Source: Clostridia bacterium
GTDB lineage: Bacteria; Bacillota; Clostridia; HGM11514
DNA: 64,000 bases
Direction of reading: 5' to 3'
Assembly (NCBI GenBank): GCA_045586685.1
Contig: JAZNAU010000032.1
Span: forward strand, 1 to 64,000
Each line of letters opens with the position of its first letter. Position 1 is the first letter of the stretch. Shown here piece after piece: positions 17,689 through 34,724 of the stretch. The notes beneath the pieces were generated by a model. The model saw only the letters and a program-made list of their open reading frames with translations, was not told the origin of the DNA and did not search any database. A program made the position numbers and the translations under genes.

Positions 17689-18606
17689 TTACTGTATTAC
17701 CAACGGAATTTCCTCCAGTGTCCAATCCTTGATGGAAACGTTCTCAACACTGATTTCCTCTCCGTTGAAGATAATGTTTATATCACTTAGTTTTCCCTGT
17801 TCCCAGTAATTGGCTTCTTCAGGAAGAACCAATGAATACTGCCGTCCGCTGATGGAAAGAATGATGCTGACCGGTGTAGCTTCATTCTTTCCTCCCTTGG
17901 TCGTTATGAGCATCGGCATGACAACCATACTTGTATAGCTGTCATCGTCATATTCATTATCAAGAACGATACCGATATTGTCCTTTCCGTATTCACCGAA
18001 ACTGGTATTCGCAATTTTACCCGTAATGAGGTCAATCACCCCGGCTACAGGAAGATCCTTTTCCTTTCCCTTGATGGAAATGCTTTCGAGTACCCTTTCA
18101 TCCGGCATGTTCTGTTTGCGGATGTTGAATCTCAACAGACTGAGTGCCGGCTTCATGAACACATCGATGCGGTTATAGGAGGCGTTGAAGAAATATTTTG
18201 ACTTTCCATACAGATAGCTTACATCCGTATTTCCTTCTACCGGAACTTTCCTTATATCCGCTATTGAACTGTAGGGGAAGTAGGCATATGCCTCCATATT
18301 CTCCTTACCTGCCATCACACCAGTTGACATCTTCCATTCTCCTCTTGCATAATATGCCTTGATGTTGGAATTGAGCGTATCATTTTCTTCACTACAATTC
18401 TTGATGAACAATCCGATGCAGTCATTGTCGTTGAATCCATGGTTGAACACATTGTCAACGCTGACAAGAAGTTCCATTTCAGTTTCCACCCTTTCATTCT
18501 TGCCGAGTCCCGGAACCGGATCGACAGGATAGTCATTCTCACCGCCCTTGTTGCAGGATGTGAGGACAGCCAGTCCGAATATCCAATATAATATGTTCCT
18601 TTTCAT
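17689..18606 (-). CDS. fimbrillin-family lipoprotein (type V pilin)
   Basis: lipobox LTSC, IGLF, AYAYFPYS, SYLYG, C-terminal VSIKDW strand. Confidence 0.8.
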   Translation of the reverse strand: MKRNILYWIFGLAVLTSCNKGGENDYPVDPVPGLGKNERVETEMELLVSVDNVFNHGFNDNDCIGLFIKNCSEENDTLNSNIKAYYARGEWKMSTGVMAGKENMEAYAYFPYSSIADIRKVPVEGNTDVSYLYGKSKYFFNASYNRIDVFMKPALSLLRFNIRKQNMPDERVLESISIKGKEKDLPVAGVIDLITGKIANTSFGEYGKDNIGIVLDNEYDDDSYTSMVVMPMLITTKGGKNEATPVSIILSISGRQYSLVLPEEANYWEQGKLSDINIIFNGEEISVENVSIKDWTLEEIPLVIQ

Positions 18607-18617
18607 AAACCGTCCTT

Positions 18618-19514
18618 TTAATTGTCTATAGTTACATCTGAAGAATCATTGCTCCACTTGTCCAGTCTGATGGTACCGGCTACAGCATCCACGAAAATAT
18701 ATACGGTAACTTCTTCCGTATTCCAATAATGGAGCCGTGCCGAAATGTCAAGATTCAGTTTCCTTTCAACACCCTGTGAATCCGTGAATGTGAAGTACAG
18801 GATATTCGTACCTGTCACACCGAGGAAATTGGCATAACCGGCATAGACGGTCTGATAACCGCCTTCACAAGCCGTTGCCCTGCCCTGTTTCCGGATAGGG
18901 AAAGCGAGTACCGCTTCTTCTCCAGGAGTGATGGAAAAGTTATGGAGATTCATTTCAACCGCCAGTCCGGAGATGTCGATGATACATTTCTCCACCAGTT
19001 CCCCGCTGTCCCGGATATTGGCAATGAAGTTAATCTTCTTCAGTACCCGCTCCATGGGAATGTACTGTTCCTGTCTTTCGTCCCCGTCAATGCTGATGTT
19101 CTGTACCCTTGCAGTATAGATCATCTCCTGCGGATTGTCCTTTATTTCCCTTTCCCCCCTTTCATTGTAGGTTGTGGGGATTTCAATCTTAGCAGTCTCG
19201 AATCTCTGACCGATTCCTTTCAGATACTTCAGGTCATGAAGGACCAGTGCATCATATTTCCCTTCGGGAATGTCCATTTCCTCCTTCTCTTCGTCTATCT
19301 TGTAACAGTAGAAAGGTATGTTACCTTCCTGCGGAAACATATATAGCCAACAGTCCTGCAATCCAACCGGGATGCGTCCTGTTTCCGGTTCAGCCGCCGT
19401 CCATTGCGTGTTGATGATGCTGTTATTTGTCCAGCTGTCTTCCTCAAACGGTTCGCATGATGCGAACATGGAGGCTATTGCAACGACAGTCAAATACTTG
19501 AAACCTCTCATCAT
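18618..19514 (-). CDS. FimB/Mfa2-like pilus anchor lipoprotein
   Basis: lipobox FASC, IPEGKYDALV, within pilus cluster. Confidence 0.65.
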   Translation of the reverse strand: MMRGFKYLTVVAIASMFASCEPFEEDSWTNNSIINTQWTAAEPETGRIPVGLQDCWLYMFPQEGNIPFYCYKIDEEKEEMDIPEGKYDALVLHDLKYLKGIGQRFETAKIEIPTTYNERGEREIKDNPQEMIYTARVQNISIDGDERQEQYIPMERVLKKINFIANIRDSGELVEKCIIDISGLAVEMNLHNFSITPGEEAVLAFPIRKQGRATACEGGYQTVYAGYANFLGVTGTNILYFTFTDSQGVERKLNLDISARLHYWNTEEVTVYIFVDAVAGTIRLDKWSNDSSDVTIDN

Positions 19515-19518
19515 CCTA

Positions 19519-20439
19519 TTATTTTACAGGTGAAACGACCACATTACCCTTGTCTGTAATTTCCCATTCGTTTACCGAAACGGTAGATACGGACATTTCC
19601 GTAGCGTTCATGGTCAGTGTGAAGTTATATATATAGCCTTGCTTGAACTCTTCGCTCATAGTACCCGATGCGGTGTATTCCTTACCGTCAACGGTAAGCG
19701 TAAAGGCAACACCCTTCTCTTTCAGACCGTTCGGAACGACCATCAGTTCCGTGATGTTGCCCTCGCCTGTCATCGTATAATTTCCGCTCCATGATACGGA
19801 AGAACCGGCATTCTTCACACCCGCCAATGCTCCCGTTCCTACATTCATGGTTGCCTCGGTACCGAAGCCGTCCGAAGCTATGCTGATGGCGGTTACTTTC
19901 CCTGTACCGGTATATGTTCCCATAACGGTAGTCACACTTACGGCAGAAAGTGCATGTTTCATGCTGAAGTTCACGGTTGCTTCTGCATTGGAAAGACCTT
20001 CCACCCATCCGCTGTACATATAGTCTGTCTGAGTGTCAGTTTCAACCGGAATGGCTGAAATGTCTGTTACACCCGTTGAATACGGATAATATGCGGCTGC
20101 TTTACCTTCTGTGGATGAAAGGAGTATCTTTCCACCGTCCCATTCCTGTGATTCCTCTTCCCCTGTTGCGGTAAACTTCACATTCTTGTAATCGAAACCG
20201 TCATAACTGTTGCCGTCGGCATCGGTAACGGTAACTCCGATGGTTGAACCGTCGGGAAGATAGGTTCCTTTCTGGATGCTCCTTGAACCGTTGACCCATC
20301 CGATTGTCGTACCGATGGTAAGGTCCTTCACATGTGCATTGTTGACTTCCAGCATTTCAGTGTCCTCGTTTGTACAGGATACTGCCATCAATGAAGCTGC
20401 CATTGCGGCAACATACATCATAAAATTCTTCTTTTCCAT
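19519..20439 (-). CDS. fimbrillin-family lipoprotein
   Basis: lipobox AVSC, putative processing Arg (GSR), AYYPY, TDYMY, MKHALS, VSVNEW. Confidence 0.85.
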   Translation of the reverse strand: MEKKNFMMYVAAMAASLMAVSCTNEDTEMLEVNNAHVKDLTIGTTIGWVNGSRSIQKGTYLPDGSTIGVTVTDADGNSYDGFDYKNVKFTATGEEESQEWDGGKILLSSTEGKAAAYYPYSTGVTDISAIPVETDTQTDYMYSGWVEGLSNAEATVNFSMKHALSAVSVTTVMGTYTGTGKVTAISIASDGFGTEATMNVGTGALAGVKNAGSSVSWSGNYTMTGEGNITELMVVPNGLKEKGVAFTLTVDGKEYTASGTMSEEFKQGYIYNFTLTMNATEMSVSTVSVNEWEITDKGNVVVSPVK

Positions 20440-20451
20440 ATCGTAATATTA

Positions 20452-22224
20452 TTAGTTATACAGTTGGTTATAGAGATTGTTCTCCTTTATCAGTTCCGCT
20501 ATTTCCGGGTCAAGTTCCCCCCGTTCAATCTTGCTTTCGTCCATCTTGCAGCTTTTCAGGAAAAGCTGTACCGCCAACTCGTCCATATTGAGCCTTGCGT
20601 AAAGGACTGCAAGCAGATATTCCCTGTCTGCCGTTTCCGGCTGTTCAAGAAGTATGTTCACTGCCGTACCGTTATATCCCAATGACATGTAGCATATGGC
20701 GGTGTTCATGTCCCTGTACTCCAGCAGTTTCGGCATTGCTTCCTTATATTTCCTTTCATCCATCAACTTTATCGCTTCAGCATATTCAGTATCAATTACA
20801 TCGGTGTACATCACGTCTTCCACCATACCTCTGCGTGAGAGATGGAATACAAAGTCCACCGTTCTGAGCTTCGGATAATATTCCATTTTCAGTTTCTTGT
20901 AAACGGCAGGGAAAGCCACGGATATTTTCCGTTCCCGTTCATCAGGATCCTGTGTTTTTTTAATCAAGGCCAATATGTCTTCCTTCTGCTCGATATCGCT
21001 TTCAGACAGCATCTGCATCAATTTGTCCCAATTTTCAGCCTTATACTGTACCTTCACCAAATCAACGGTTTCGGCATTGCTCTGTAGTGCCGGTTCAAGA
21101 TATTTCTTGAGTGATACGGCACGTTTTTCGGCCAGTATTTTGTTCGCCTGGAACGATCCTTCCGGTGAGCATGCCGGTATGAGTACGATGGAGTCCACGA
21201 TAAATTCGTTACCCTCGTTGATTTCCTTCATTTTCCGGTAGACTTTCTCTATCTCTTCCCTGTTGTTGTGCAGTGTATCATCCACAACTGTACTTCCTGC
21301 CGGGAAGTGGATATATGCACTTGTTGTTTCAGTTACTTTTCTTTCCACCGTTTCACGGATATATCTCGGTTTCCTGTCAAGGAACTGTGTCATGGATGAA
21401 ATGAAATAGTTCAGTGTATCACCGCTACGAAGGTGGTAGGTTGCCATTCCCAAGTCTTCCACTTTCGCAGTGAAGTACAGTTTCAGTTTCCGTCTCATCT
21501 CTTCCGTCCGGAAATCCTGTTTGTAGTAATATTCCAGATTTTTCCGGTTCTTTACGATGGTATCAAGAACCCATGATCGGTTGTACCGTTCGTTACCTTC
21601 CGCCCAATGGTCAAGTTCCCTTACCAATACATCCGTGGTACTGTCATTCCTGTAGAAATATGGGTAGAAATCCTTTCTTCTTTCCACCCTCTTCTTGTTT
21701 TTATTGATTCTTCTGTTCAGTTTCCTTTCTTCATACCATTTCCTTCTTCCGTCCATATTCCGGAATTGTTCACCGGCCACCACGACGGATTTCAGTTCAT
21801 GTTTCTCTCCTTCATTGTCAAGAGTAGGATGTATTGTCACCCTCCAGTCCTTTTTAGTATATGTTTCCGGAACGCTAACCATGAAGGCGATGGTAATGTT
21901 CCCGTTCCGTTCCGGGACGGTCTTGGACTTTGCCGTTACAGTCACCTCGTCAAGCTGCGAGGTAAGCATGTATTCCCCGTTCGTGCTGTCACGCACTGAT
22001 GTCATTACGGTCTTCTCCTGTCCGTCCTTATCCTTGAATGTTATATGTTTTCCCGTTTCCACCTTGTTTTCTTCCGTCTTTTTTTCGGCGTTTGCAGGTT
22101 GTCGTACATTGACCAGTCCGCTCACCATATAGGCTTCCTCCAGTCTGCGTTGTGTAGAACATCCGGATAGGATGGAAAAGGCGATGACCGGCATCAATAT
22201 CGGTAAGGCATGTATCTTTTTCAT
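20452..22224 (-). CDS. DUF3868/OmpA-like lipoprotein of fimbrial loci
   Basis: lipobox LSGC, IHFPAGS, CSPEGS..NKILAEKRA, AENWD, YPKLR, TPR-like tail. Confidence 0.8.
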   Translation of the reverse strand: MKKIHALPILMPVIAFSILSGCSTQRRLEEAYMVSGLVNVRQPANAEKKTEENKVETGKHITFKDKDGQEKTVMTSVRDSTNGEYMLTSQLDEVTVTAKSKTVPERNGNITIAFMVSVPETYTKKDWRVTIHPTLDNEGEKHELKSVVVAGEQFRNMDGRRKWYEERKLNRRINKNKKRVERRKDFYPYFYRNDSTTDVLVRELDHWAEGNERYNRSWVLDTIVKNRKNLEYYYKQDFRTEEMRRKLKLYFTAKVEDLGMATYHLRSGDTLNYFISSMTQFLDRKPRYIRETVERKVTETTSAYIHFPAGSTVVDDTLHNNREEIEKVYRKMKEINEGNEFIVDSIVLIPACSPEGSFQANKILAEKRAVSLKKYLEPALQSNAETVDLVKVQYKAENWDKLMQMLSESDIEQKEDILALIKKTQDPDERERKISVAFPAVYKKLKMEYYPKLRTVDFVFHLSRRGMVEDVMYTDVIDTEYAEAIKLMDERKYKEAMPKLLEYRDMNTAICYMSLGYNGTAVNILLEQPETADREYLLAVLYARLNMDELAVQLFLKSCKMDESKIERGELDPEIAELIKENNLYNQLYN

Positions 22225-22472
22225 GATTCTTCCGTTTCCTCTTCAAATGAGATTGTCAGTTCCCATTTGAAATTGTTCGTATAATAGTAACTGTTCATAA
22301 TCTTGTCGAACTTGACGATAGCACCGAGTTCCTCCAGTTCGTATAGTTTCTTGGACAGGGTTACAGGGTTCACCTTCATTTCCTTGGCCAGTTGTGCCCG
22401 TCCTCCGGTCCGACCTTTCTCAATCCTTTTGTGAAGCTTGTACAGTCGCTTCATGTTGCTCATAAAATCCAT
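22221..22472 (-). CDS. small winged-HTH protein
   Basis: RTGGRAQLAKEMKVNPVTLSKKLYELEELGA...SYYY. Confidence 0.7.
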   Translation of the reverse strand: MDFMSNMKRLYKLHKRIEKGRTGGRAQLAKEMKVNPVTLSKKLYELEELGAIVKFDKIMNSYYYTNNFKWELTISFEEETEES

Positions 22473-22486
22473 ACCCTCCTTGTTTT

Positions 22487-23032
22487 TTAAAATAGATAAT
22501 TGAAGCTAACGTCAAACTTTGCGGGAAAAATTCTGAATCCACGTTCATTTCCGTAGTTCCGTGAATTGCTTTTCCATCCGCATTTGTCATAGTCCGCATA
22601 TCCGGCACCTACACCCACTTCCATTTCCACGTTTATCCTTTTGCCGAGAATCCAGCTGTAACCACCTCCGATACCGCCACCGAAACATCTGCCGTCATAA
22701 CGATATTTATGATTCATCCATCCACCTACATGAAATCTTGAAGCAATACCATAGGCAGAGATGAACCAGTTTGTATGTGGAGATAGCAACCAGTATCTTG
22801 CTCCAGGCATGACCGTCAGTTGCTGGAATCTTGAATTGTCATTGAACTTGAAAGGGTTGTATAACACCGGAAGATGTAGGGAAACTCTTTTGCCTACAAC
22901 ACAGTTTATTTCCACATTGGGCGTTGCTGTCAGCCACATTGTACCGCTTGTCCTTACACCGATGGACTGTGCAAAAGTTATTGCGGTAAAGGCTATAGAC
23001 ATTATATGAATACAAAACAATCTCTTATTCAT
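22487..23032 (-). CDS. DUF3575-like beta-barrel protein
   Basis: ATPNVE, YNPF, VMPGARYW, GYSWIL, C-terminal NYLF. Confidence 0.8.
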   Translation of the reverse strand: MNKRLFCIHIMSIAFTAITFAQSIGVRTSGTMWLTATPNVEINCVVGKRVSLHLPVLYNPFKFNDNSRFQQLTVMPGARYWLLSPHTNWFISAYGIASRFHVGGWMNHKYRYDGRCFGGGIGGGYSWILGKRINVEMEVGVGAGYADYDKCGWKSNSRNYGNERGFRIFPAKFDVSFNYLF

Positions 23033-23097
23033 AGGGCTTCACTGATTATGGGAAGAGGGGAAACGGTACATCTCCCCTCCTCTTAAAAAAAATACAA

Positions 23098-24117
23098 TTA
23101 GTTGTTGTCCGGAGTCTGGATGTCACCACCTGTCTGTTCAACCTTGATCCATGGCTTAATTGAAACTTCAGTCACGTCCAAACCTGTACCCTTCAAAGTG
23201 AAAGTATATTCGTAATTCTTACCTGCTACATATCCATCTTGAACAGCAGGGATAGGAAGAGTATAGGCTTTGCCGTCCACTGTAACTGTCACTTCAGCAT
23301 CACCTTCAGCAACTGTACCCGGATAAAGGAGCAAGCGAGGGAGCTTTGCTGCATCTTCTACATCCATCAAAGTTGCTGATGCATCCGGAGTCAAAGAAAT
23401 ACCACTTGCAGAAGTAGTACCACCAGTGATTGCACCAGTACCGATATGCAAGGTTGCTTCACCAGTCTTGATTGCTTCCTTACCTTGCTTGTTCTTCAGT
23501 ACGATTGAAGAAACCTTACCTTCACCCGGATAAAGTACTGTAACATCAGTTGTCTGCTTGAATTTGAATGATACCATTGCAAGAGCATGGTTCATATTCA
23601 AAGCTACGGTGTTTGAAGCATTTGAAATGTTGTCAACAGGGTCTGCCCACATATAATCTGTCTGATCCTGGTCTACTGTACCGTCAGACTGACCGGTACC
23701 CTGTGCATCAGCAACAGTCATAGGAATGGCAGAACCGTCTTGTGATGCATTACCAGCTGCATAAGGATAGTAAGCGTAAACCTTACCTACAGTTGATGAA
23801 AGGATAATTGCTTGTGAAGTTGCATTCCAATCACCATCAGCTTCATTATATGAAACGTTGGTTGTAGCGATGTTGCTGCTTGCATCATTGTAGGCAGTAC
23901 CGAAAGCAGTGTTACGGTAGATGTAAAGACCGAGTGCTTCACCATTTGTGAAAGATGTTGCGGTGATACCGGCACGTGACTGAATACTTTCCAAGCCTAC
24001 CGCTGTAACCTGTAATTGGTTCGGTGTACTGTTGTTTACTACATCGTCATCATTGTTACATGATGTCATTCCTACGAAAGCTGCTGCGAAAGCAGCTATT
24101 ACATAAAACTTTTTCAT
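23098..24117 (-). CDS. fimbrillin-family lipoprotein, probable major pilin
   Basis: lipobox MTSC, QSR, VYAYYPY, TDYMW, MNHALA; followed by a GC stem-loop at ~23054-23084. Confidence 0.85.
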   Translation of the reverse strand: MKKFYVIAAFAAAFVGMTSCNNDDDVVNNSTPNQLQVTAVGLESIQSRAGITATSFTNGEALGLYIYRNTAFGTAYNDASSNIATTNVSYNEADGDWNATSQAIILSSTVGKVYAYYPYAAGNASQDGSAIPMTVADAQGTGQSDGTVDQDQTDYMWADPVDNISNASNTVALNMNHALAMVSFKFKQTTDVTVLYPGEGKVSSIVLKNKQGKEAIKTGEATLHIGTGAITGGTTSASGISLTPDASATLMDVEDAAKLPRLLLYPGTVAEGDAEVTVTVDGKAYTLPIPAVQDGYVAGKNYEYTFTLKGTGLDVTEVSIKPWIKVEQTGGDIQTPDNN

Positions 24118-24163
24118 TTGATTTGAATTTTGAATTTAATGATTATAAAATTGATAAGACCTA

Positions 24164-24457
24164 TCAGGTCGTTTTGATTAAGTTGGTCACGATCCAAGTA
24201 CCTTTATATTCCTTTCGGTTATGCAGTCCTTTCTTTATATTCTTGTTGATTCGATATATTCCGAATCCGAGAACGGACGCACCTACCAACAGTGCTATGA
24301 AGAAGCCGAAGAAAGAAAGGCATATTCCGACAGATACCAGGATAGCAAAGAAAGTCCCTGCCCCCCAAAGTATGTTCTGTCCTTTCAGACCGAACATGAT
24401 AAGTGGTTTTTGCAAGCCTCTGTAGACGTTATATGACTGGTATTCTTCCGCTTCCAT
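24164..24457 (-). CDS. TraF-like (DUF4133, VirB3-like)
   Basis: YNVYRGLQKPLIMFGLKGQ plus two TM segments. Confidence 0.8.
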   Translation of the reverse strand: MEAEEYQSYNVYRGLQKPLIMFGLKGQNILWGAGTFFAILVSVGICLSFFGFFIALLVGASVLGFGIYRINKNIKKGLHNRKEYKGTWIVTNLIKTT

Positions 24458-24487
24458 TTCTCTGGTTATTGAATTGTTACCATTGGA

Positions 24488-24844
24488 TTATTCGAAGAAC
24501 AACGGCAATGCTTGAGCTGCTGCAATGAGGAATATACATGAACCGACAATCAGCATGATTGACTTCTTTACGTCCTGTTCCTCGTTGTTCATCTTGATAA
24601 ACACACTTATCGCACCACCAAGTACGACTACCCCTGCAATGGCATAGATAAGATTCTGCACCATCGGGATATAAGCCTTGATTTCGGTTGTCACCTGTGC
24701 GATTGCACCTTGTCCTGCTGCCCCGTTCTGTGCGAAAGCAACAAAGGACATCATCATAGTCAAGAGGAACATACATGCTCTTTTAGCTATACTTTTCATC
24801 CCCTTGACTGCGTTCGTTACGAACTTTCTGATTCCTGTTCTCAT
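24488..24844 (-). CDS. TraE-like pilin (DUF4134, VirB2-like)
   Basis: YAIAGVVVLGGAISVFIKMNNEEQDVKKSIMLIVGSCIFL. Confidence 0.85.
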   Translation of the reverse strand: MRTGIRKFVTNAVKGMKSIAKRACMFLLTMMMSFVAFAQNGAAGQGAIAQVTTEIKAYIPMVQNLIYAIAGVVVLGGAISVFIKMNNEEQDVKKSIMLIVGSCIFLIAAAQALPLFFE

Positions 24845-24874
24845 TTCTTTTAAATTAGTTAATATTATTGTTGA

Positions 24875-25243
24875 TTACGCCGTAGCCGGTATTATGCCTC
24901 TGAAGAAATTCTCACCTGTTTCCTCTTCAAAAATTTTCTTGAGTTCCAATGAAGAGAATCCCCCGCAATAGTTTACTTCTATTGTTTCTTTTTGATTTTC
25001 TTCTTCGTTTTCTTCAGCCGGTAGAGGATTGTCCTGTTCCTGTTCTCCACCTGCCTTATACCCGGTGAGGATTTCCGCATCTTTAGGGACATAGCTGTCC
25101 ACGGAGTCGGAAATGTCAATATCCTCCCCTCTATCTTCATTATTACTTGTCTTGCCGGACATATAAAGGTCGTATCCTATCATACCGGCGAAGTACAATG
25201 TATATACGCCCATTACCCCTGCTGCAAATTCATAAAAGCCCAT
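24875..25243 (-). CDS. membrane-anchored acidic protein, first gene of tra/pilus operon (TraD-like position)
   Basis: N-terminal TM (YTLYFAGMIGYDLY), acidic tail; ATG 8 bp from the left inverted repeat. Confidence 0.65.
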   Translation of the reverse strand: MGFYEFAAGVMGVYTLYFAGMIGYDLYMSGKTSNNEDRGEDIDISDSVDSYVPKDAEILTGYKAGGEQEQDNPLPAEENEEENQKETIEVNYCGGFSSLELKKIFEEETGENFFRGIIPATA

Positions 25244-25250
25244 ATCTTAA

Positions 25251-25285
25251 TCTTCTCATTAAACGGTCGATTTGTGAAACAATTA
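25251..25285 (+). repeat. left inverted repeat (serine-invertase crossover site)
   Basis: TCTTCTCATTAAACGGTCGATTTGTGAAACAATTA; 34/35 identical to the reverse complement of 32123-32157. Confidence 0.9.
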
Positions 25286-25329
25286 AATTGCTGGGGCTAT
25301 CTTTGCAGTCGATTTTAAGAAATTAGGAT

Positions 25330-25929
25330 ATGAAAATTGGATACGCACGAGTTAGTACAAAGGATCAAAATTTTGATTTGCAAATTTCAGCCTTAGAAAA
25401 GGCTGGATGTGAGATTATCTATAAAGAAAAAAGAAGTGCCGTAAAGGATAGACCAGAATTAGAAAGAATGATGGAGTATCTTAGAAGTGGAGATATAGTC
25501 GTCGTTTGGAAACTTGATCGTTTGGCACGTTCATTGCAACATATTTTGTTCTTAATAGAAGAGTTGAAACGAAGAGATATAAGAATAATTAGTTTGTCTG
25601 AAGGAGTTGATACGGATACTCCTACAGGAAAATTCTTTTTGTCAATTACGGGTGCTTTTGCTGAATTAGAACGTAATTTGATTGTAGAGAGGACGCAGGC
25701 AGGATTACAGGCGGCCAGAGAGAGAGGGGTGAAATTAGGACGGAGAGAAGGTATTAGTGAAGAAAGAAAGGTTATAATGGAGGCAGCTTGTAATCTTTAC
25801 AGGGATAGTGAAATGACTACACCGGATATATGTGCATCATTGGGTATGTCTTCGGCAACTCTATATCGTTACCTTAAACTTTATGGGATAGCCAAAAAAA
25901 ACAATCCGGGGAGAAGGAAAAAAAATTAA
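25330..25929 (+). CDS. serine DNA invertase/resolvase (Hin/Mpi/Fin-like)
   Basis: GYARVST catalytic Ser, VWKLDRLARS, AELERNLIVERT, C-terminal HTH SSATLYRYL; -7 element TATCTTTG at 25298-25305. Confidence 0.92.
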   Translation: MKIGYARVSTKDQNFDLQISALEKAGCEIIYKEKRSAVKDRPELERMMEYLRSGDIVVVWKLDRLARSLQHILFLIEELKRRDIRIISLSEGVDTDTPTGKFFLSITGAFAELERNLIVERTQAGLQAARERGVKLGRREGISEERKVIMEAACNLYRDSEMTTPDICASLGMSSATLYRYLKLYGIAKKNNPGRRKKN

Positions 25930-27074
25930 ACTTCTTCAAGGAATAGAATAGATGTTTGCGACATATCTTTTACAAGATTCTTAATGGTTGAATATACATA
26001 TTTCCCCTTGTGAATAACATTGCAATCAGGCTTTGCAAAGAATTCTACAAGTTGTGATATTTTTTCAAGTACAGGCAAATGGTTTTCTATTGTTATCAAA
26101 TTGCTTATTTCAGTGGCCATCTTTTCATCCATTAAAATATAGCTACCTCGGAGAAGGTCGTTTACTTGGCGTTTCTTCAGTTCTAAGCCACCTTGCATTT
26201 GGCTACTTAAAGAATATGTATTTATGATTTTAAAAACCAAGTTGTCAGGTTCACCTGCTTTACGTTTGCCTGGAGCATATTGTTTGTCATATTCAAAGTA
26301 GAAATCGGCTTTTCCGTTATGAGCCATTTCTTTCATCTCCTTTTGGGCTGGAACTATAACACGTTTAACAAAATCCTTAAATTCTGAATATGAATTTTCC
26401 AATCTTAGATACCTCCTTAATGATTCCATTTTTACAGTACAACCTCCTTCCTCTGCAAAAGCAGAAAGGTACAGACAGAATCGAGGAGTATATGCGTTAG
26501 TGGCTGATAAAATAGTATATTGTAAGAATTTGGTAAAACCGAATTCCATATTCAATAACATTGTAGCTGTTGTCTTTTTTATCTTTATGTAAACGTTATC
26601 TACACGCCCACTTTCTGGCAAGCGAACACTACATAAATTGTCAAATTCTCGCCATATTTTCTGATTTTTATCTCTTACAGGTATTTCCACCGGAATCGTT
26701 ACTAACATTTTAAGAGCTTCTTTTAATTGTCTGTATTGATTCCTATGAACTCCAAAACTATTCATTGGTATCTTTAGCAAGATGGAACTTGGATCACTTT
26801 CATCAAGAAAGTCTGAAGAAGAGAATAATGTATTTTCAGTTGAGATTTTATTATAATGGTTGTATATAGCTTCCTGTATGTTTTCTTGTAATGCACCGAT
26901 AATTCGGACAAAAATTTTTGATTGAATAAGGGTGTAATTATACCGCATAAAAGTTACAGCGGTTGGTTGAACCAACCATACCAGTTCATTTTTATCTTGA
27001 GAAGGAAGCGGAACAGGTAATGTCTGTCTTGATATTCTTCTTTTATTGCTATTATTACTGTTCAAGGAAGTCAT
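25926..27074 (-). CDS. plasmid replication initiator (Rep_3 family)
   Basis: VQPTAVTFMRYNYTLIQSKI, GFTKF, YT.R.....S, YSEFKDFVKRVIVPAQKE; adjacent iterons. Confidence 0.85.
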   Translation of the reverse strand: MTSLNSNNSNKRRISRQTLPVPLPSQDKNELVWLVQPTAVTFMRYNYTLIQSKIFVRIIGALQENIQEAIYNHYNKISTENTLFSSSDFLDESDPSSILLKIPMNSFGVHRNQYRQLKEALKMLVTIPVEIPVRDKNQKIWREFDNLCSVRLPESGRVDNVYIKIKKTTATMLLNMEFGFTKFLQYTILSATNAYTPRFCLYLSAFAEEGGCTVKMESLRRYLRLENSYSEFKDFVKRVIVPAQKEMKEMAHNGKADFYFEYDKQYAPGKRKAGEPDNLVFKIINTYSLSSQMQGGLELKKRQVNDLLRGSYILMDEKMATEISNLITIENHLPVLEKISQLVEFFAKPDCNVIHKGKYVYSTIKNLVKDMSQTSILFLEEV

Positions 27075-27477
27075 ATTTAGGCTTGAGATTGAATTCTATA
27101 TTTTTTTGCAAAGCAGATAGGTACGACAATAAAGTGTCACGTCTATACCCTCTTCCTTTTTCAATGCTGATAATTCTACTTGGTGTTATCGATGCTTTTA
27201 CTTGAATATCGAATTGTGTCATCTGACATTCTTTACGGATGGACGTTAATTCGTTTCCTAAATCTTCAAGTGTCTTTATTTCTTTATTGTTCAAAATGAA
27301 TTGATAACCTAAAGCTTGGATGTATATAAGTAAACTGATTACATTATAGTTGGAACCAGTTTCTATATTATTCAATACAACTTTTTGGAGAGGAGTTATC
27401 CCCTCAGGAAAAACAACCTTTAATTGTTTTTCATTTCGTAAATACTGTATTTTCTTTTCGATTTCCTGAAGAGTCAT
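27055..27477 (-). CDS. XRE-type HTH regulator (two HTH-like units)
   Basis: probable start MTLQEIE; LNNIETGSNY and IRKECQMTQ...ISIEKGRGY. Confidence 0.7.
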   Translation of the reverse strand: MTLQEIEKKIQYLRNEKQLKVVFPEGITPLQKVVLNNIETGSNYNVISLLIYIQALGYQFILNNKEIKTLEDLGNELTSIRKECQMTQFDIQVKASITPSRIISIEKGRGYRRDTLLSYLSALQKNIEFNLKPKYDFLEQ

Positions 27478-27495
27478 ATAGTTTATATTTTGCCA

Positions 27496-27528
27496 CAAAA
27501 ATAGCAATAATAAACGATACTACCAAAT
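27496..27528 (-). promoter_or_regulatory. family-2 promoter (copy 1)
   Basis: TTTGGTAGTATCGTTTATTA-N4-TATTTTTG: Bacteroides -33/-7 with conserved spacer. Confidence 0.75.
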
Positions 27529-27587
27529 TATAAACAAGTTATTTGCTTATGGTATAAAAGTTTATATTTGTCCGTTTTCTTTACCTT

Positions 27588-27895
27588 GTGTGTAATCTGT
27601 CCCATTTGAGTGTGTATTTTGCAGTAGGATGAAGTGTGTAATCTGTCCCATTTGTCGTACACAATCTTTGAGAGAGGGTTTGCAGATGTAAAAAAAACGA
27701 GAAAATCGACTCTTAAAATCTTTCTATAAACCCTTAATTTATCGCTATTTTGAGCCAAATTTCCTTATTTTGTAAATATAAACGAAAATAGTGTGTAATC
27801 TGTCCCATTTGCGATTTTGGAAGTGTGTAATCTGTCCCATTTGCAAAAAATGTGTGTGTAATCTGTCCCAATTAAGTGTGTAATCTGTCCCATTT
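27588..27895 (+). repeat. six 20-bp iterons GTGTGTAATCTGTCCCATTT (replication origin)
   Basis: copies at 27588, 27634, 27791, 27823, 27854 (1 mismatch), 27876; followed by an AT-rich tract. Confidence 0.9.
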
Positions 27896-28219
27896 GTAGT
27901 ATATAAATATACTGATTTTCAATAAGTTACAGAACCCTAATACTTCTTAATATATAATTAATATATATCTAATACCTTTTTTCAATTTTCATTTTCGACG
28001 ATTATAGACATAAAGCGGAGCCTTAAAACAATCTAACAATCCATGCGGCATATAAAAAACAAATGTTCTGCTTATGCAAAGATAATAAAAACAACAATAG
28101 GGAAGAAATTAAGTCTGTCATGTTTTAAAGTGTTTCTAAATGTTAAAATTCGTTTTTACTTTCCCTGCCGTATAGTTTCTTATTAGGAAAAGAAGTATAT
28201 TTGCTTGCGGAAATAAATA

Positions 28220-28258
28220 GCAAGATGTGTTTTTGTGTACACAAAAACCTTATCTTGC
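28220..28258. other. probable oriT
   Basis: perfect 20-bp palindrome GTTTTTGTGTACACAAAAAC (28229-28248) flanked by GCAAGAT/ATCTTGC, resembling the MOBP nic motif; upstream of mobC/relaxase. Confidence 0.7.
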
Positions 28259-28309
28259 CGGATAAACCGGGACAAATTATTTCGCAACTCAATAATTTTC
28301 TAATGTTAT

Positions 28310-28696
28310 ATGACGGAGAAAAAGAACAAAACCAGGCAGTTACATATAAGACTTACGGAAGAACAGGAAAAGCTTATAAAATCGAAGGCTGTTAATTATC
28401 CCACTCTATCAGGATATATATTGGATGCAGCTCTTCATTTTGATGATAAGAATGGAATACGAAAATTAGAGGTTATAGAATCTTGGGCTTCAGAATATCA
28501 AAAATGGAAAAATGACATCTCTCATTTGGCTTCCAATATCAATCAGTTGGCTCATTATTGTAACCAATGTAAAGCTAATGGTATTTTAAACAATTCCGTT
28601 GTCGAGGAAAACAATAAGTTGATGAAGGAGTGGAATAATATTTCCGGTAAGATAGTTGAATTTCAAAAATGGCTTGTTAGGTTTGCTAAAAAATAA
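28310..28696 (+). CDS. MobC/MobA-type RHH relaxosome accessory protein
   Basis: LHIRLTEEQ RHH; LASNINQLAHYCN. Confidence 0.85.
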   Translation: MTEKKNKTRQLHIRLTEEQEKLIKSKAVNYPTLSGYILDAALHFDDKNGIRKLEVIESWASEYQKWKNDISHLASNINQLAHYCNQCKANGILNNSVVEENNKLMKEWNNISGKIVEFQKWLVRFAKK

Positions 28697-28815
28697 TTTT
28701 ATATATTTATGATTATATAAGTATAGATATTTATGGATATATAGTTTTATAATTATAGAAATATATAATTATATATATTTTTAAATGTATATAGAAATAA
28801 TTATATAAGTATAAA

Positions 28816-30366
28816 ATGATTGTTCGAATTCTGAAGGGTTCAAGTTCTTTTTCTGCCGTGGGTTATAATGAAGAGCGGGTTAAGAATGGTGAAGGACAGT
28901 TGCTATGTTCCAATAATTTTGGTTCAACTGCAGATGTTCTATTTACTAAACCGTCAGATTATAAAAATTACTTAAAGGATTGGAGTAGCAGAAATAGTAG
29001 GATAAAATCACCACAGTTACATGTTACAATATCATGTAAAGACAAATCTTATAATCCTGAAGAACTTAAAGAAATTGGGATAAAGTGGTTAGAAAAAATG
29101 GGGTATGGTTCTAATCCTTATATGATTTATTTTCATTCTAACACAAAGAATAACCATATTCACATCATAACTTCAAGAATAGATGGACAGGGAAGAAAAA
29201 TCAATGATAGTTATGAAAAAGAAAGATCAGTGAGAATACTGGATAGCATTATTGGTTTGGATAGATATGATTTGCTTAGGAAGGAAATAGCTAAAGCTTT
29301 AAAATATTCGTATACATCAGAAAAACAATTTTGTCTTATTCTTGAAAGTAGAGGATTCCGTGTATTTGATAGTGGTAAGAGTCTTAAAATATTATCTGGC
29401 GGAGAAAATGTAGAAATTGATAAAGAGTTAATAAATTTCTGCATGAACAAATACAGACATGAACTTACGAAACAGGAAAAGAGTAAATTATATGCTTTGA
29501 TAAAGAAATACTCAACAATTCTTCCCAAAGATGAATTTTCTGAATTTATGAAAATGAAATTTGGACTTAATTTCATATATATGGGTAAGAAAGACAGTCC
29601 TTATGGTTATTGTATCGTTGATGACGCTAATAAGCGAGTCTATAAAGGAAGTGAAATCTGTTCTTTAAAATTATTGCTTTCCAATCTTGAACGCAATAAG
29701 GAAATCGATGTGGAAATAGAAGTGTTGCTTAAAGATTATTTTTACAGAAACAGATATGCAAATTCAAAGGAACTAAATCATATGTTAGGCAAATATAGAA
29801 TGAAATATTATGATGGGAAGATTATCAATAAATATACTAAGGAAACTAAACTGGTAATGCCAAGAGCTTTCAATGAATTTATAGCTTATAATAATAAACT
29901 GCGTTATGTTAGTAATGTATATAATCCTCAAACAAATGGTGAATATGAATATTTGAGTAAAAGATTTGTTATCAAAATAGAAGATTTAAAAAGAATTGGT
30001 TGTAAATCTTCTGTTAATGATAACTCTTATTATAAAGAATTGATTGAGGAAATATTAAAACTAAATGGAAATCTAAGAGATGAATTGAACTCTTTAGGTA
30101 TTAGTGTCAGAAAAATCGGGCAGGAATTTATTTTTATCGACGATGATAGGGATGTTGTTTACAGCAATGAAAGAATAGGTCTTAATTATTCTTTGTTAGA
30201 AGAATCGATGACTTTAGATGTGCCTGTAAGATTCTACGATAACGATGAATTTGCTACCAATAATAATGAAGAACTCATAGGTGTAATAGATTCATTGAGT
30301 GATATGATATATGTTAATACATCAATGGGTGGTGGTGATAATCCTAAAAAACGACGGAGGAGATAA
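28816..30366 (+). CDS. MOBP-type relaxase
   Basis: AVGYNE catalytic Tyr, HVTIS, YFHSNTKNNHIHIITSRI HUH motif. Confidence 0.9.
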   Translation: MIVRILKGSSSFSAVGYNEERVKNGEGQLLCSNNFGSTADVLFTKPSDYKNYLKDWSSRNSRIKSPQLHVTISCKDKSYNPEELKEIGIKWLEKMGYGSNPYMIYFHSNTKNNHIHIITSRIDGQGRKINDSYEKERSVRILDSIIGLDRYDLLRKEIAKALKYSYTSEKQFCLILESRGFRVFDSGKSLKILSGGENVEIDKELINFCMNKYRHELTKQEKSKLYALIKKYSTILPKDEFSEFMKMKFGLNFIYMGKKDSPYGYCIVDDANKRVYKGSEICSLKLLLSNLERNKEIDVEIEVLLKDYFYRNRYANSKELNHMLGKYRMKYYDGKIINKYTKETKLVMPRAFNEFIAYNNKLRYVSNVYNPQTNGEYEYLSKRFVIKIEDLKRIGCKSSVNDNSYYKELIEEILKLNGNLRDELNSLGISVRKIGQEFIFIDDDRDVVYSNERIGLNYSLLEESMTLDVPVRFYDNDEFATNNNEELIGVIDSLSDMIYVNTSMGGGDNPKKRRRR

Positions 30367-30438
30367 TTATAAATGTTTATAAATATATAGTTTTAGATTT
30401 ATATATTGATATGTTTATAGAAATTTATTTTCATTATT

Positions 30439-30471
30439 ATTTGGTAGTATTATTTATTATCCTTACATTTG
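30439..30471 (+). promoter_or_regulatory. family-2 promoter (copy 2) driving lipoprotein-traA-traB
   Basis: TTTGGTAGTATTATTTATTATCCTTACATTTG. Confidence 0.75.
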
Positions 30472-30510
30472 CAAAAAATAATAATTGTTTCACTTATTAA
30501 ATGTAGATTT

Positions 30511-30975
30511 ATGAAAAAATTAATTTGGGTAGTAATGGCTGCCATTTTAAGTTTTGGTGTTGTGTCTTGTTCCAGTTCTGATGATGACCCCACAGAACAA
30601 GTTTCCAAAAACAAGGGAATCTTTAAAGTTGTGGTAACTCAAACAGGTGAATTGGATAAATTTGTTTTTTCTTCTTCTGTGAATGGGGGGGATGCTGCAA
30701 AAACGGGAATTTTTGAAAGTGGTACTTCTAAGGATTTAGGAATGGCTTATCAGTTAACCGATGCTGAAGCTTGTAGAAATACCTATTCTTATCAAACAGA
30801 CAAAAATGGAATGTTGCTGATGGCAACAGTTGGTGTCTATGCAAAAGATGGATATGAGGATAAAAAGATAACTATAAATATGAAATTGTATCTTGACAAT
30901 AAAATGTTGGGTGAAAAGGAAGAAACTTTTTCAGAAGGAGTTATCCAGATAAATTCTCATGATTATGTAAACTAA
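30511..30975 (+). CDS. lipoprotein
   Basis: probable start MKKLIW; lipobox VVSC followed by SSSDDD. Confidence 0.75.
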   Translation: MKKLIWVVMAAILSFGVVSCSSSDDDPTEQVSKNKGIFKVVVTQTGELDKFVFSSSVNGGDAAKTGIFESGTSKDLGMAYQLTDAEACRNTYSYQTDKNGMLLMATVGVYAKDGYEDKKITINMKLYLDNKMLGEKEETFSEGVIQINSHDYVN

Positions 30976-30986
30976 ATAATAGAATT

Positions 30987-31664
30987 ATGCCTGTCATTGT
31001 ATTTGCTAATCAAAAAGGAGGGGTAGGAAAATCTACTCTTGCTATAATGTATGCCAATCATCTTTCTGGTGTCAAAAATAAAAGGGTGACTGTTTGGGAA
31101 ACTGATGTCCAGAAGAGTATTTATGAACAAAGGAAGGATGATGAATTGACTTGGGGAAAGGAAAATATGAAATATGACGTTCATTACATACAATTAGATA
31201 CTCTTCAAAATTCTGAAGCAATGATGGTAGAAGCCAAAGAGGTCTATAAAGATGATATTGTCATTATTGATGTTCCTGGTAATATAACTGATAATTATAT
31301 TGCTCCTTTGTTGATTTATGCGGATTTTATTATTTGCCCATATATGTATGAAACAAAAGTTCTTCAAAGTACAACAACATTTATTAAAGTTTTGAAGAAA
31401 TTGAAGAAGATGTTTCCAGAAGTGATGAATCCTAAGATTCTTTATGTTCCTAATAATATCGATCCGAGAGAAGGTACAACAAAAGAACTTGAACAGCGAA
31501 TGCAGGTTGATGATATATTCAGAAAGAATGGTGGTGGAGAAGTTTTGCCTAAAATTCATCAGCGTGCCGATGTTAAGAGATTAAATACATATATGAATAC
31601 TCAAAAGCAGGAATACATAAGTTCTGCATGCTTTTCTCAACTCGATAAACATATTTTAGAATAA
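30987..31664 (+). CDS. ParA-family ATPase (TraA-like)
   Basis: NQKGGVGKST deviant Walker A, IIDVPG. Confidence 0.9.
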   Translation: MPVIVFANQKGGVGKSTLAIMYANHLSGVKNKRVTVWETDVQKSIYEQRKDDELTWGKENMKYDVHYIQLDTLQNSEAMMVEAKEVYKDDIVIIDVPGNITDNYIAPLLIYADFIICPYMYETKVLQSTTTFIKVLKKLKKMFPEVMNPKILYVPNNIDPREGTTKELEQRMQVDDIFRKNGGGEVLPKIHQRADVKRLNTYMNTQKQEYISSACFSQLDKHILE

Positions 31665-31723
31665 TTTTAATAATTTTATTATCATTTTATTTCTCTGTAA
31701 CAAATTAAAGCCATAATTTTGCC

Positions 31724-32125
31724 ATGTCAAATGAAAAAAATAAAAAAGGTGCTGTTTCTGCAAAGTTGCCAGGCGGCATAAGATCTTTGATATCAGATGA
31801 TGATGATACTCCTATCTTGGAACCAAAATTGAGTTCTTCTACAAAAGAAGAGAAAAAAAATTCTCTTAAAAAAGGGAATTCAATATTTGAGAAAGGAATG
31901 AGTATTGAAGAAAGAATCAAATTCTACAAGCAAAAGAGAATTGAAAAAGAATCTTTGTATGTGGATGAAGAAGTGAAACAAGTGTTAAAAGCTTATTGTT
32001 CAGCTAAAAAGGCTAATAAATGTAAGCTTACAGAGCTTGTTTCAGCAGCATTAAGTGAATTTATTGCAAACCATAACGATATGATTAAAGAGGCTATTCA
32101 AGAGAATAAAAATTTACTTGAATAA
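31724..32125 (+). CDS. ParA partner / TraB-like RHH protein
   Basis: basic N-terminus, SLYVDEEVKQ...LTELVSAAL; its stop codon lies within the right inverted repeat. Confidence 0.6.
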   Translation: MSNEKNKKGAVSAKLPGGIRSLISDDDDTPILEPKLSSSTKEEKKNSLKKGNSIFEKGMSIEERIKFYKQKRIEKESLYVDEEVKQVLKAYCSAKKANKCKLTELVSAALSEFIANHNDMIKEAIQENKNLLE

Positions 32126-32157
32126 TTGTTTCACAAATCGAACGTTTAATGAGAAGA
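32123..32157 (-). repeat. right inverted repeat
   Basis: TAATTGTTTCACAAATCGAACGTTTAATGAGAAGA. Confidence 0.9.
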
Positions 32158-32165
32158 AATAATTA

Positions 32166-32196
32166 AAAAAGGAACACTTTTATAGGTGTTCCTTTT
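32166..32196. terminator. bidirectional terminator just outside the right IR
   Basis: AAAAAGGAACAC-N8-GTGTTCCTTTTT; the same stem recurs at ~35224-35255. Confidence 0.75.
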
Positions 32197-32216
32197 TGCA
32201 TATAACGTAATTCAGT

Positions 32217-32876: not shown

Positions 32877-33293
32877 CTAAATATTTCCTCTTAATTGGTA
32901 GTTTTCGATAGTAAGTTGCTTGTTTTTCTCTTTTTCCTTTTCTAATTCTTCGACCAAGAATTTGATTCTTTCGTCTCTTTTGAATTCCTTGAATTCACTT
33001 TTTGAGAGGTTACTGACGGTAGCGACGGTATTCTTTAACTTGGTATTCTCTTCTTTCAGCTTATCCATTCGGGCCAGTTCCTTGTCTGCCGTTTCCAGTT
33101 GTCTTTGTAAGCAGCTTATTCTTTGTTCCTGTGTGACATATTCATTGAGTCTTGTCTCTTCCTGGTTTGATTCTATATAATCCTGAAGACACGTCATGCC
33201 CTCAAGGAATGCCTTCAATTCTTTCTCATTCCTTTTCCCTGTTGTTTCATACTCCTTCAGGAGTATTGTTTTTATATGGTTGAAATCAGTCAT
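32877..33293 (-). CDS. coiled-coil hypothetical protein
   Basis: 138 aa, overlaps the resolvase stop. Confidence 0.6.
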   Translation of the reverse strand: MTDFNHIKTILLKEYETTGKRNEKELKAFLEGMTCLQDYIESNQEETRLNEYVTQEQRISCLQRQLETADKELARMDKLKEENTKLKNTVATVSNLSKSEFKEFKRDERIKFLVEELEKEKEKNKQLTIENYQLRGNI

Positions 33294-33936
33294 TTTTTCT
33301 GTTGTTCTTATCCACCAATTCCTTCTTTATCCGTTGGATGGTGGAAACGGATTTGTTTACCAGTTTGGCCACATTTCTAATGGAATATCCTCTATTGAGT
33401 AGGGTAATGGCTTCCCTGTATTCTTCCAGTTTCTTTTCCTTCGACTTTCTGCTTCCCGTTTTTCTCCCTAATTTCCCGCCTTTTTCTATATAGAGTTTTC
33501 TTCCGCTTTGTAGCCGGTCAACAATACCTTGCCATTCGATATTGGACAATTCAGCGAGTATGGTCGTGATGATCGAAGTAATGGGATTTATCCTTCCATC
33601 AGGAAGTAGCGTTTCCACATTGATATTTTGGATATAGACATTGATTCTGTTTTTATGCAGTTCTTCGATTGTCTTCAGAACTTCAAGTGTAGTTCTTCCC
33701 AATCTTGATATTTCCGTTACCAGTAACATGTCTGCCTGTTGCTCGATGCAGAAGGTTATACAGTTCTGAAGAACCTCCCTTTCTGAATTTCTCTTTTTCC
33801 CGGATATGTGTTCTTCAAAGCTGCCGATAATGGCATATCCCCGGCTGATGGCGAATCGTTCAAGTTCTGCCACCTGCCGTTGTGTAGATTGCCTGTTCCC
33901 TTGGGAACTGACACGGGAATATAGGACTACATTCAT
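33286..33936 (-). CDS. serine resolvase
   Basis: YSRVSS, TEISRLGR, LGRKTG, HTH YSIRNVAKL..KSVSTIQRIK. Confidence 0.9.
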   Translation of the reverse strand: MNVVLYSRVSSQGNRQSTQRQVAELERFAISRGYAIIGSFEEHISGKKRNSEREVLQNCITFCIEQQADMLLVTEISRLGRTTLEVLKTIEELHKNRINVYIQNINVETLLPDGRINPITSIITTILAELSNIEWQGIVDRLQSGRKLYIEKGGKLGRKTGSRKSKEKKLEEYREAITLLNRGYSIRNVAKLVNKSVSTIQRIKKELVDKNNRKND

Positions 33937-33938
33937 TT

Positions 33939-34610
33939 TCAGAGATACTTTGCTATTGTATCCACCACTTTGTCTATTGTAGATAAAGAATCAGGAAGGT
34001 CTTCATCTATCCAGTTTAACAATTCCATTATTTTATCGTGCATTCCTGAAGCATAAGATAAATTCTTTCTACCATTGACAAAGCAGATGGGTTCATTATG
34101 ATTTATTCTATTTCTGAATTCTCTAATCTCAATTATCCTTTTGTTGATATCGGTACGATCAATGTTTGCAGGTTTATTCTTAAATATGGATAAAGGAATA
34201 CCGGATAAGACGGCATATGGTTTCTTCTCAAACATGCTATTCCAGAATCCAAGATTCTGTTCTGCAATTATTCTTCCATGAGTGATTGCTATACCATTGT
34301 CTGTAAGTTTCTTTTCCGCCTTTGTTACTTCTCCTTTCATCCAATATTTGCTTCCAAGCCTACGGTCTTGCATGAACCCGTTCTTTTGATTGATAATCCA
34401 TTCCTTATCATTAAAGTGAGCTGCTAAAGCATAGTGAAGTTGATTTCTCAAAATAACTTCAAATGAACCGAGGAGAGGATGAAAAGCCTGTGCCAATTCT
34501 AAATTGGCCTGATATAATTCCATAGCTCTTTGTTTGTTTTTTCCTACAGCCCGGAAATATTTGTTTATTCTTTGATAAGAATAAAATCTTATAAATTTTC
34601 TGTAATTCAT
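33939..34610 (-). CDS. Abi-like (AbiD/AbiF, Abi_2-type) HEPN protein
   Basis: probable start MNYRKF; LYQAN, FEVILRN, NLGFW, RNRINH (RxxxxH) EPI. Confidence 0.8.
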   Translation of the reverse strand: MNYRKFIRFYSYQRINKYFRAVGKNKQRAMELYQANLELAQAFHPLLGSFEVILRNQLHYALAAHFNDKEWIINQKNGFMQDRRLGSKYWMKGEVTKAEKKLTDNGIAITHGRIIAEQNLGFWNSMFEKKPYAVLSGIPLSIFKNKPANIDRTDINKRIIEIREFRNRINHNEPICFVNGRKNLSYASGMHDKIMELLNWIDEDLPDSLSTIDKVVDTIAKYL

Positions 34611-34642
34611 TGTTTTTCCAAAAAATATTCCTACCTTTGTAC

Positions 34643-34724
34643 CGTAATGCTTGGTTCCTCCTCTGTTATCAAGACATGAAACCAAGTTCAGGATATACCC
34701 ATTCCATCAAGGAGTGGGTTTTTT
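34643..34724 (+). ncRNA. putative ~80-nt sRNA antisense to the abi leader
   Basis: -7 TACCTTTG at 34632-34639; stem CTTGGTT/AACCAAG; terminator ACCCATTCC-ATCAA-GGAGTGGGT-TTTTT. Confidence 0.6.

Follow-up and report, generated by a model that had tools for sequence, protein, structure and literature searches.

A segment bounded by inverted recombination sites, carrying the replicon and relaxase genes of a Bacteroidota-type conjugative plasmid, as a candidate switch for its transfer operon

Can a conjugative plasmid join and separate its relaxase operon and its transfer operon by flipping the DNA that lies between them? This question is raised by a 6.9-kb segment (positions 25251-32157) in a stretch of 64,000 nucleotides, hereafter the window, from contig JAZNAU010000032.1 of assembly GCA_045586685.1, which was binned as a member of the Clostridia. 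The segment contains the replication and relaxase genes of a plasmid, is bounded by inverted repeats, and has a serine invertase gene just inside one repeat and the operon of a type IV secretion system (T4SS) just outside it. In this study, we found a pair of recombination sites, an invertase of the Gin/Hin class, an architecture conserved in distant plasmids and, in the family of plasmid pBF9343 from Bacteroides fragilis NCTC 9343, both orientations of the corresponding module. From this we infer that the flip would couple transcription of the T4SS operon to the relaxase operon. Considering all the results, we give the whole explanation, a conserved invertible module whose flip couples the transfer (tra) operon to a relaxase/ParA unit, a probability of roughly 55%. 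The contig is 77 kb long and shows no terminal overlap; the window covers its first 64 kb.

The features at the two ends of the segment are the following.

24875-25243, minus strand: first gene of the T4SS operon, 122 aa, whose N-terminal segment resembles the first tra gene of pBF9343
25251-25285: left recombination site, hix-like and dyad-symmetric, with central dinucleotide GT at 25266-25267
25298-25305, plus strand: TATCTTTG, a match to the Bacteroides -7 promoter box, facing the invertase gene
25330-25929, plus strand: small serine DNA invertase, 199 aa, Gin/Hin-like (Pfam Resolvase, 4.9e-46)
31724-32125, plus strand: 133-aa traB-like protein, whose C-terminal 56 aa are 36% identical to the pBF9343 counterpart
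32123-32157: right recombination site in inverted orientation, with central dinucleotide at 32141-32142
32166-32197: terminator-like 12-pair hairpin between A and T runs, nine bases beyond the right repeat

The repeats are 35 nt long, complementary at 34 of 35 positions (97%) and separated by a spacer of 6837 nt. Both are dyad-symmetric (TCAnnAAnCG-NN-CGnTTnnTGA), and the two arms differ only where that dinucleotide at the centre begins, in its first base; the right core is AA on the plus strand and TT when read as a left site, from outside to inside. A search with the 20-nt site core, allowing up to three mismatches, matched the two repeats and nothing else in the window, where 0.12 matches were expected by chance and two or more occurred in none of 100 shuffles. 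No further copy was present across the 56 contigs of the genome bin, and the site was absent from all 11 other genomes of the bin's family and order. The invertase gene starts 45 nt inside the left site, so that two dyad-symmetric inverted sites stand with an invertase gene alongside, as is usual in the invertase family. On the outer side of the left repeat, seven bases separate it from the ATG of the leftward tra operon at 25243 (8 nt outside the repeat). At the other end, the TAA stop codon of the traB-like gene (32123-32125) forms the first three bases of the right repeat. The initial annotation had described the symmetric 35-bp repeats, the invertase just inside them and the stop codon lying in the right one, and the repeat search, the shuffles and the profile matches all bore this out.

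The enzyme is best classed as a Gin/Hin-like serine invertase and not as a member of the Mpi family. The Pfam Resolvase profile matched residues 3-134 with 156.9 bits, followed by weak HTH_7/HTH_23 matches at 137-185, and alignment to Gin placed the catalytic Ser9 in the conserved context YARVST. Its closest solved relative is Gin (4m6f, E 4e-42; 3uj3, E 1e-41), and the Tn3 and gamma-delta resolvases gave weaker matches (E about 1e-24 to 1e-25). The earlier description of the enzyme as Mpi-type is not supported, because it scored 65.9 bits on the NCBIfam Mpi model NF009949 against a cut-off of 272.

Between the sites, the segment holds the following features in addition to those given above.

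25926-27074, minus strand: Rep3-family replication initiator, with Rep3_N and Rep3_C above their cut-offs
27055-27507, minus strand: 150-aa protein with weak helix-turn-helix (HTH) matches, whose position next to rep is conserved in a metagenome contig (L006)
27587-27909: six 22-nt direct-repeat iterons (GTGTGTAATCTGTCCCATTTG) found by repeat search, likely the origin of replication (oriV)
28310-28696, plus strand: NikA/MobC-like relaxosome accessory protein (profile match)
28816-30366, plus strand: MobA/VirD2-type relaxase (profile match)
30469-30975, plus strand: PLCC-family lipoprotein (profile match)
30987-31664, plus strand: ParA-like ATPase (profile match), called traA in the initial annotation

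The profile matches and the repeat search thus agree with the earlier listing of a rep gene, iterons, a relaxase gene and a lipoprotein gene. With its Rep3 initiator and nearby iterons the replicon is to be classed as a theta replicon of the Rep3/iteron type, and an origin of transfer (oriT) presumably lies between the iterons and position 28310. The naming of the last two genes as traA and traB held in part. A ParA-like gene followed by a small gene is present, and this may equally be a partition pair of ParA and a small protein, of type Ib. The ParA-like protein scored 59.8 bits on the ParA_partition model (cut-off 180); the 133-aa protein had no family match in profile searches and no tblastn match in PLSDB, and its C-terminus may form a ribbon-helix-helix.

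What would a flip of this segment change? In conjugative transposons, ParA-like traA and traB directly precede the rest of the transfer operon. As assembled here, they lie 6.9 kb away on the other strand, a state that we call uncoupled. The Bacteroides -7 promoter consensus is TAnnTTTG. A crude scan with this consensus found no box facing the tra operon of the uncoupled state in 800 nt of the window or in 813 nt of plasmid pBACSA01 from Phocaeicola salanitronis, and found one in 800 nt of pBtheCL11T00-1; a scan for sigma-70 promoters was uninformative (43 sites versus 39.6 expected). The claims that the tra operon begins 8 bp outside the left repeat without a visible promoter, and that a terminator stands outside the right repeat, are both in line with these data and with the hairpin at 32166-32197. 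We propose that the Gin/Hin-like invertase inside the left site would recombine the two hix-like sites by exchange at the core dinucleotide. As assembled, the tra operon abuts the divergent invertase gene and lacks a recognizable promoter, and the unit of relaxase, lipoprotein, ParA and traB-like genes ends at the terminator-like hairpin. In the flipped state, this unit would run terminator-free into the first tra gene 39 nt downstream, in a gene order resembling that of conjugative transposons; the distance had been estimated at about 40 bp, and it compares with 43 nt from the traB-like gene to the first tra gene in the joined state of the pBF9343 family. Neither the terminator nor the divergent invertase gene would then stand any longer between the relaxase/ParA unit and the T4SS operon. 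T4SS transcription would be coupled to the relaxosome/partition operon, and perhaps only a minority of cells would build the mating apparatus. On a circular plasmid only two junctions change, and it depends on the point of view whether one calls the replicon the part that flips.

The same layout occurs in distantly related plasmids. In pBACSA01, the recombinase gene is divergent from the tra operon, and one arm of a 31-nt inverted repeat (30/31) lies between them; the other arm, 12.6 kb away, overlaps the stop codon of a small gene that follows mobC, relaxase and ParA genes. The layout of pBF9343 is as in pBACSA01, and its recombinase is 50% identical to that of the window. Three metagenome contigs (L006, L008 and L009) encode invertases 55-66% identical to the window's, divergent from a traE-traF-traG operon, and in L008 and L009 one homologous site, GTTTCACAAAACG-AC-CGATTAATGAAAC, lies between the invertase gene and the tra operon. 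Judging by this shared layout, the 6.9-kb segment is probably one instance of an invertible module conserved among conjugative plasmids of the Bacteroidales. The closest invertases in other Bacteroidota plasmids stand in unrelated contexts, with a Tn3 transposase in Pedobacter pA27BH1 and with restriction genes in a Chryseobacterium plasmid; the architecture is therefore not general to these enzymes. Separately, a repeat of 20-22 nt, TAAGGTAGTAACTTTGTTTGCA or its inverse, occurs three times in L008 (10774-10795, 12496-12517 and 16069-16088), just downstream of the invertase gene, and may mark a second invertible or shufflon-like region.

The initial annotation had suggested comparing orientation across related plasmids, and in the pBF9343 family both states were found. 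With the natural joined junction of one record as query, 31 PLSDB records gave a match. The traB-like gene, the site and the first tra gene are contiguous in three of them, NZ_CP018939.1, NZ_CP072214.1 and CP103278.1 (88% coverage), and in the remaining 28 the match breaks at the outer end of the site. The uncoupled state is thus the commoner one in this family. The annotation of 12 records examined singly agrees with this: the small gene is followed in 10 of them by a convergent gene (TetR, HTH or hypothetical) and in two by tra genes. All nine uncoupled records examined carry GTTTCACAAAACG as the outer half-site on the traB side. In CP103278.1, the traB-side site carries instead the tra-side outer half-site GTTTCATTAATCG together with the tra flank, which is the reciprocal product expected from an exchange at the core. 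In the same record (L102, 14414-24349), an inserted element with an integrase, mobilization genes and cfxA truncates the first tra gene to 64 codons, and part of the tra operon is also rearranged.

The plasmid Q1F2-p2 (NZ_CP018939.1; L094 and L111) holds both states in a single record from one isolate. This 73,970-bp "complete circular" record corresponds to about 1.75 copies of a plasmid of about 42.2 kb, in which positions 1-19919 match 42176-62118 and positions 19941-31815 match 73970-62090 inverted, both at 99.7% identity, and both the tra|traB-like and the tra|recombinase junctions are present. Its gene table is sparse, which suggests many frameshifts. A further pair, NZ_CP072214.1 and NZ_CP072225.1, has modules that are 100% identical (5782 + 6510 = 12,292 nt), flanks that are 99.9% identical, and opposite orientations. 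Three joined records out of 31, one of them containing both junctions, show that the pBF9343 family does undergo inversion at these sites.

The inversion could nevertheless be real and have no regulatory role, with the enzyme and its sites serving plasmid maintenance (stability or the resolution of multimers) or acting in trans on chromosomal invertible promoters and the flip tolerated as a by-product. The invertase gene adjoins rep and ParA, which are maintenance functions, and resolvases are common among the small serine recombinases that plasmids carry (matches in more than 5000 PLSDB records); yet the closest solved relative of the enzyme is an invertase and not a resolvase, and resolution could be left to a second serine recombinase outside the module. 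The trans role can point to FinB, the Hin-like recombinase of the pBF9343/pBFY46 type, which in the case of pBF9343 was reported to bind chromosomal polysaccharide-promoter repeats. The placement of the sites also speaks against this reading. In three lineages, whose small proteins can barely be aligned, the second site overlaps the stop codon at which the ParA unit's last gene ends, and the first lies right before the first tra gene. Chance placement is unlikely to have been kept in this way, and we consider the absence of any regulatory role unlikely as well.

The nearest relative of the window is a contig from a goat-colon bin (L001), the only close relative returned by the relaxase search of genome contigs. 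It is 96-99% identical to the window and collinear with it over 18.8-40.4 kb, and it has the same orientation. Its repeats match at 35 of 35 positions, with core AC in both (6409-6410 and 13326-13327). The window differs from L001 at all four core positions and is identical at the remaining 66 repeat positions, a clustering that, on this comparison, far exceeds what the background divergence of 1-4% would give. Read inwards, the core is AC in every relative examined, and the two cores are identical in L001, pBACSA01, pBF9343 and Q1F2-p2; in the window they are GT and TT. The left core GT is the reverse complement of the family-wide AC. The unequal cores may be scars of abortive cleavage, may have been selected because they lock the state, or may be an artefact of the consensus if the sample was mixed. 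In Hin and Gin biochemistry, unequal crossover cores block productive inversion, and by this rule switching in the window copy is probably rare or blocked.

Several findings weigh against the proposed switch. Besides the unequal cores of the window, as opposed to AC/AC in L001, both assemblies of the lineage (window and L001) are uncoupled, and no contig with the alternative junction was present in the window's genome bin or in the genome of L001. Among the distant contigs, a second copy of the site was not found in the available stretches of L008 and L009, and L006 has no site of this type. The flipped plasmid NZ_CP072214.1 is not the product of a simple crossover at the core, since no exchange of the outer half-sites has taken place in it. 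Beside its recombinase gene, 170-175 nt of the tra flank are duplicated in inverted orientation, and this duplication accounts exactly for the 175-nt difference in length from NZ_CP072225.1. The methods section of a paper citing this strain states that ambiguities in invertible regions were fixed by hand. The duplication reflects either a non-conservative inversion or an assembly effect, and NZ_CP072214.1 was given less weight. Finally, ON for the flipped and OFF for the assembled state are labels: the common state (28 of 31) could be transfer-competent through a promoter that the consensus missed. As to the duplication itself (L104, 3652-3830; L103, 5783-5960), it takes in the leader and the beginning of the first tra gene, flanks the module in the flipped plasmid only, and meets the TetR flank at a microhomology of 4 nt.

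The window data alone could be read as a fixed arrangement, in which the sites are relics with mutated cores and the T4SS is expressed or silent independently of them. This would explain why all the differences from L001 in the repeats fall in the cores, why one orientation was seen in both lineage assemblies, and why neither genome yielded an alternative junction. It is harder to square with an invertase open reading frame that is intact and 99.5% identical to that of L001, with half-sites that are perfectly kept, and with the matched cores of L001; moreover, a metagenome consensus could mix variants at the core positions. We therefore regard a fixed arrangement as rather improbable. The material for comparison within the lineage was as follows: 18 sequencing runs from 9 studies contain at least half of the sampled window words, no near-identical plasmid was found in PLSDB by megablast or in metagenome contigs (best invertase match 66% identical), blastn of the window DNA against PLSDB gave short gene-level matches only, and the site repeat pattern had no match in the IMG/VR viral contigs.

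A G+C content of 0.29-0.32 within the module (26001-32000), against 0.43-0.47 in the T4SS and fimbrial region (10001-24000), suggests a mosaic origin of both parts. It might also mean that the sites are points of module exchange, at which recombination between plasmids swaps replicon and mobilization cassettes between T4SS backbones. In CP103278.1, the recombinase-side homology to pBF9343 begins 2 nt before the core, and the outer half-site and neighbouring genes differ, which speaks for such an exchange. The low G+C content, however, extends into the right flank, and no two of the plasmids compared share a backbone and differ in module; exchange is also compatible with a switch. As an explanation in place of the invertible module, we think it has a slim chance. 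Chance or a fault of assembly, as might be feared of a contig from a metagenome bin, can be dismissed as the origin of the repeats, since none of the shuffles reached two matches, the repeats recur in an independent assembly (L001), and homologous sites are found in the complete isolate plasmids pBACSA01 and pBF9343.

The remaining features of the operon that the flip would control, and the recombinase gene beyond the right repeat, are listed below.

24488-24844, minus strand: TraE-type pilin-like protein (DUF4134 / TrbC-VirB2; DUF4134, 6.2e-28)
24164-24457, minus strand: 97-aa protein at the traF position, no Pfam match, with homologues next to traE in L006, L008 and L009
17110-24117, minus strand: Mfa-type fimbrial block with three fimbrillin-like proteins, DUF3575 and an Mfa2-like protein (profile matches)
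2252-16586, minus strand: rest of the Bacteroidota-type T4SS (profile matches), including the five genes that follow
13689-16586, minus strand: TraG/VirB4 (P-loop_TraG, 1.1e-123)
8927-9976, minus strand: VirB6-like protein (profile match)
6473-7618, minus strand: TraM (Transposon_TraM, 6.8e-38)
5611-6459, minus strand: TraN (DUF4138, 3.1e-60)
2252-4411, minus strand: coupling protein (profile match)
33286-33936, minus strand: another serine recombinase, beyond the module and with 29% identity to the invertase, candidate multimer resolvase

With TraE, TraG, TraM and TraN in one operon, the leftward operon is, by its profile matches, a T4SS of the Bacteroidota (CTnDOT-like) type. The Mfa-type (type V) fimbrial block sits within it, between the gene at the traF position and traG. 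The fimbrillin gene at 23098-24117 is 67% identical in L001, compared with 99-100% for the neighbouring genes, and looks like that of a variable adhesin co-transcribed with the mating genes. Almost every gene that the window holds outside the module is encoded on the minus strand; within the first 25 kb the sole large exception is a gene for a 503-aa Fic-domain protein (699-2210, plus strand). The second serine recombinase, just beyond the right repeat, stands beside an Abi_2-family gene (33286-34685 for the two) and scored 60.5 bits on the Mpi model, below the cut-off.

Among known systems, the nearest in mechanism are the Hin, Gin, Cin and Pin switches of Salmonella flagellar phase variation and the phage Mu G segment. 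Their invertase, also a small serine recombinase (about 190-200 aa), is likewise encoded at one end of the segment, they too have two inverted, dyad-symmetric sites around a 2-nt core, and the window half-site (G)TTTCAyWAAWCG resembles the hix half-site TTATCAAAAACC. In contrast to these switches, the window unit holds a replicon, a relaxase operon and a ParA unit in place of a promoter cassette or tail-fibre exons, its proposed output is fusion with the T4SS operon, and its two cores are unequal. Hin and Gin inversion further needs an enhancer and the host bending protein Fis. In gene content the nearest system is pBF9343 itself, which shares the module order (recombinase, Rep, MobC, relaxase, ParA, small protein), the site positions, the type of T4SS operon and, at 50% identity, the recombinase, with AC as its core. 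The relaxases are only 30% identical, however, and the pBF9343 module is about 11.7 kb long against 6.9 kb; that of the window lacks ArdC and has the extra lipoprotein gene, its Rep lies on the opposite strand, and its tra operon contains the fimbrial block.

In Bacteroides fragilis, the master invertase Mpi acts on ARACGTWCGT repeats and inverts promoter segments of some 200 bp at numerous loci. It is also a serine recombinase of the Bacteroidales, and the right site of the window, AAACGTTCGA, comes close to its repeat, but the window has one pair of sites 6.9 kb apart on a plasmid, and its enzyme falls below the cut-off of the Mpi model. Two further systems act on conjugation. In Tn916, rearrangement reportedly places transfer genes behind promoters otherwise separated from them, so that transfer functions are produced only once it has occurred; this is the kind of coupling by site-specific rearrangement that we propose here, although Tn916 relies on tyrosine-recombinase excision and circularization of an integrated element and not on a reversible flip by a serine invertase. 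The R64 shufflon (IncI1), in which the tyrosine recombinase Rci acts on many sfx sites and shuffles the C-terminal exons of PilV to change recipient specificity, is likewise a plasmid-borne programmed inversion affecting conjugation, but it leaves operon connectivity unchanged. Literature searches returned no description of this module's inversion in the parts of the sources that were accessible, the 2003-2005 papers on B. fragilis inversions and their supplements lying outside their scope.

The host also deserves comment. The genome bin is 97% complete, with 1.55 Mb, and lacks a SusD homologue; its order is represented by only 12 genomes in the collection; L001 was binned as Lachnospiraceae. 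The T4SS and type V pilus genes of Bacteroidota type indicate a Bacteroidota host and make the binning doubtful, and the plasmid contig was probably mis-binned.

Beyond the window, it is possible, and we put it forward tentatively, that gut Bacteroidales conjugative plasmids including pBF9343 flip the whole replicon/relaxosome/partition module with a Gin-like invertase, that its transcription unit is thereby reversibly fused to the T4SS operon, that conjugation is phase-variable in them, and that the core is a mutational hot spot locking the state, as in the window. Cultured strains already provide sites, enzyme and naturally occurring variants of either state, among the 31 PLSDB records that include the plasmid of the B. 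fragilis type strain. If true, this would give a native function to a long-known plasmid invertase, explain the presence of a Hin-like invertase on otherwise cryptic plasmids, and explain the structural disagreement among complete assemblies of these plasmids. Some members of the pBF9343 family carry annotated resistance genes, and the state of the switch may bear on how frequently these members move. The gut Bacteroidales are the densest known site of gene exchange, and if the flip gates the mating apparatus, transfer among them would be a bet-hedged, heritable on/off trait and not a purely signal-regulated one.

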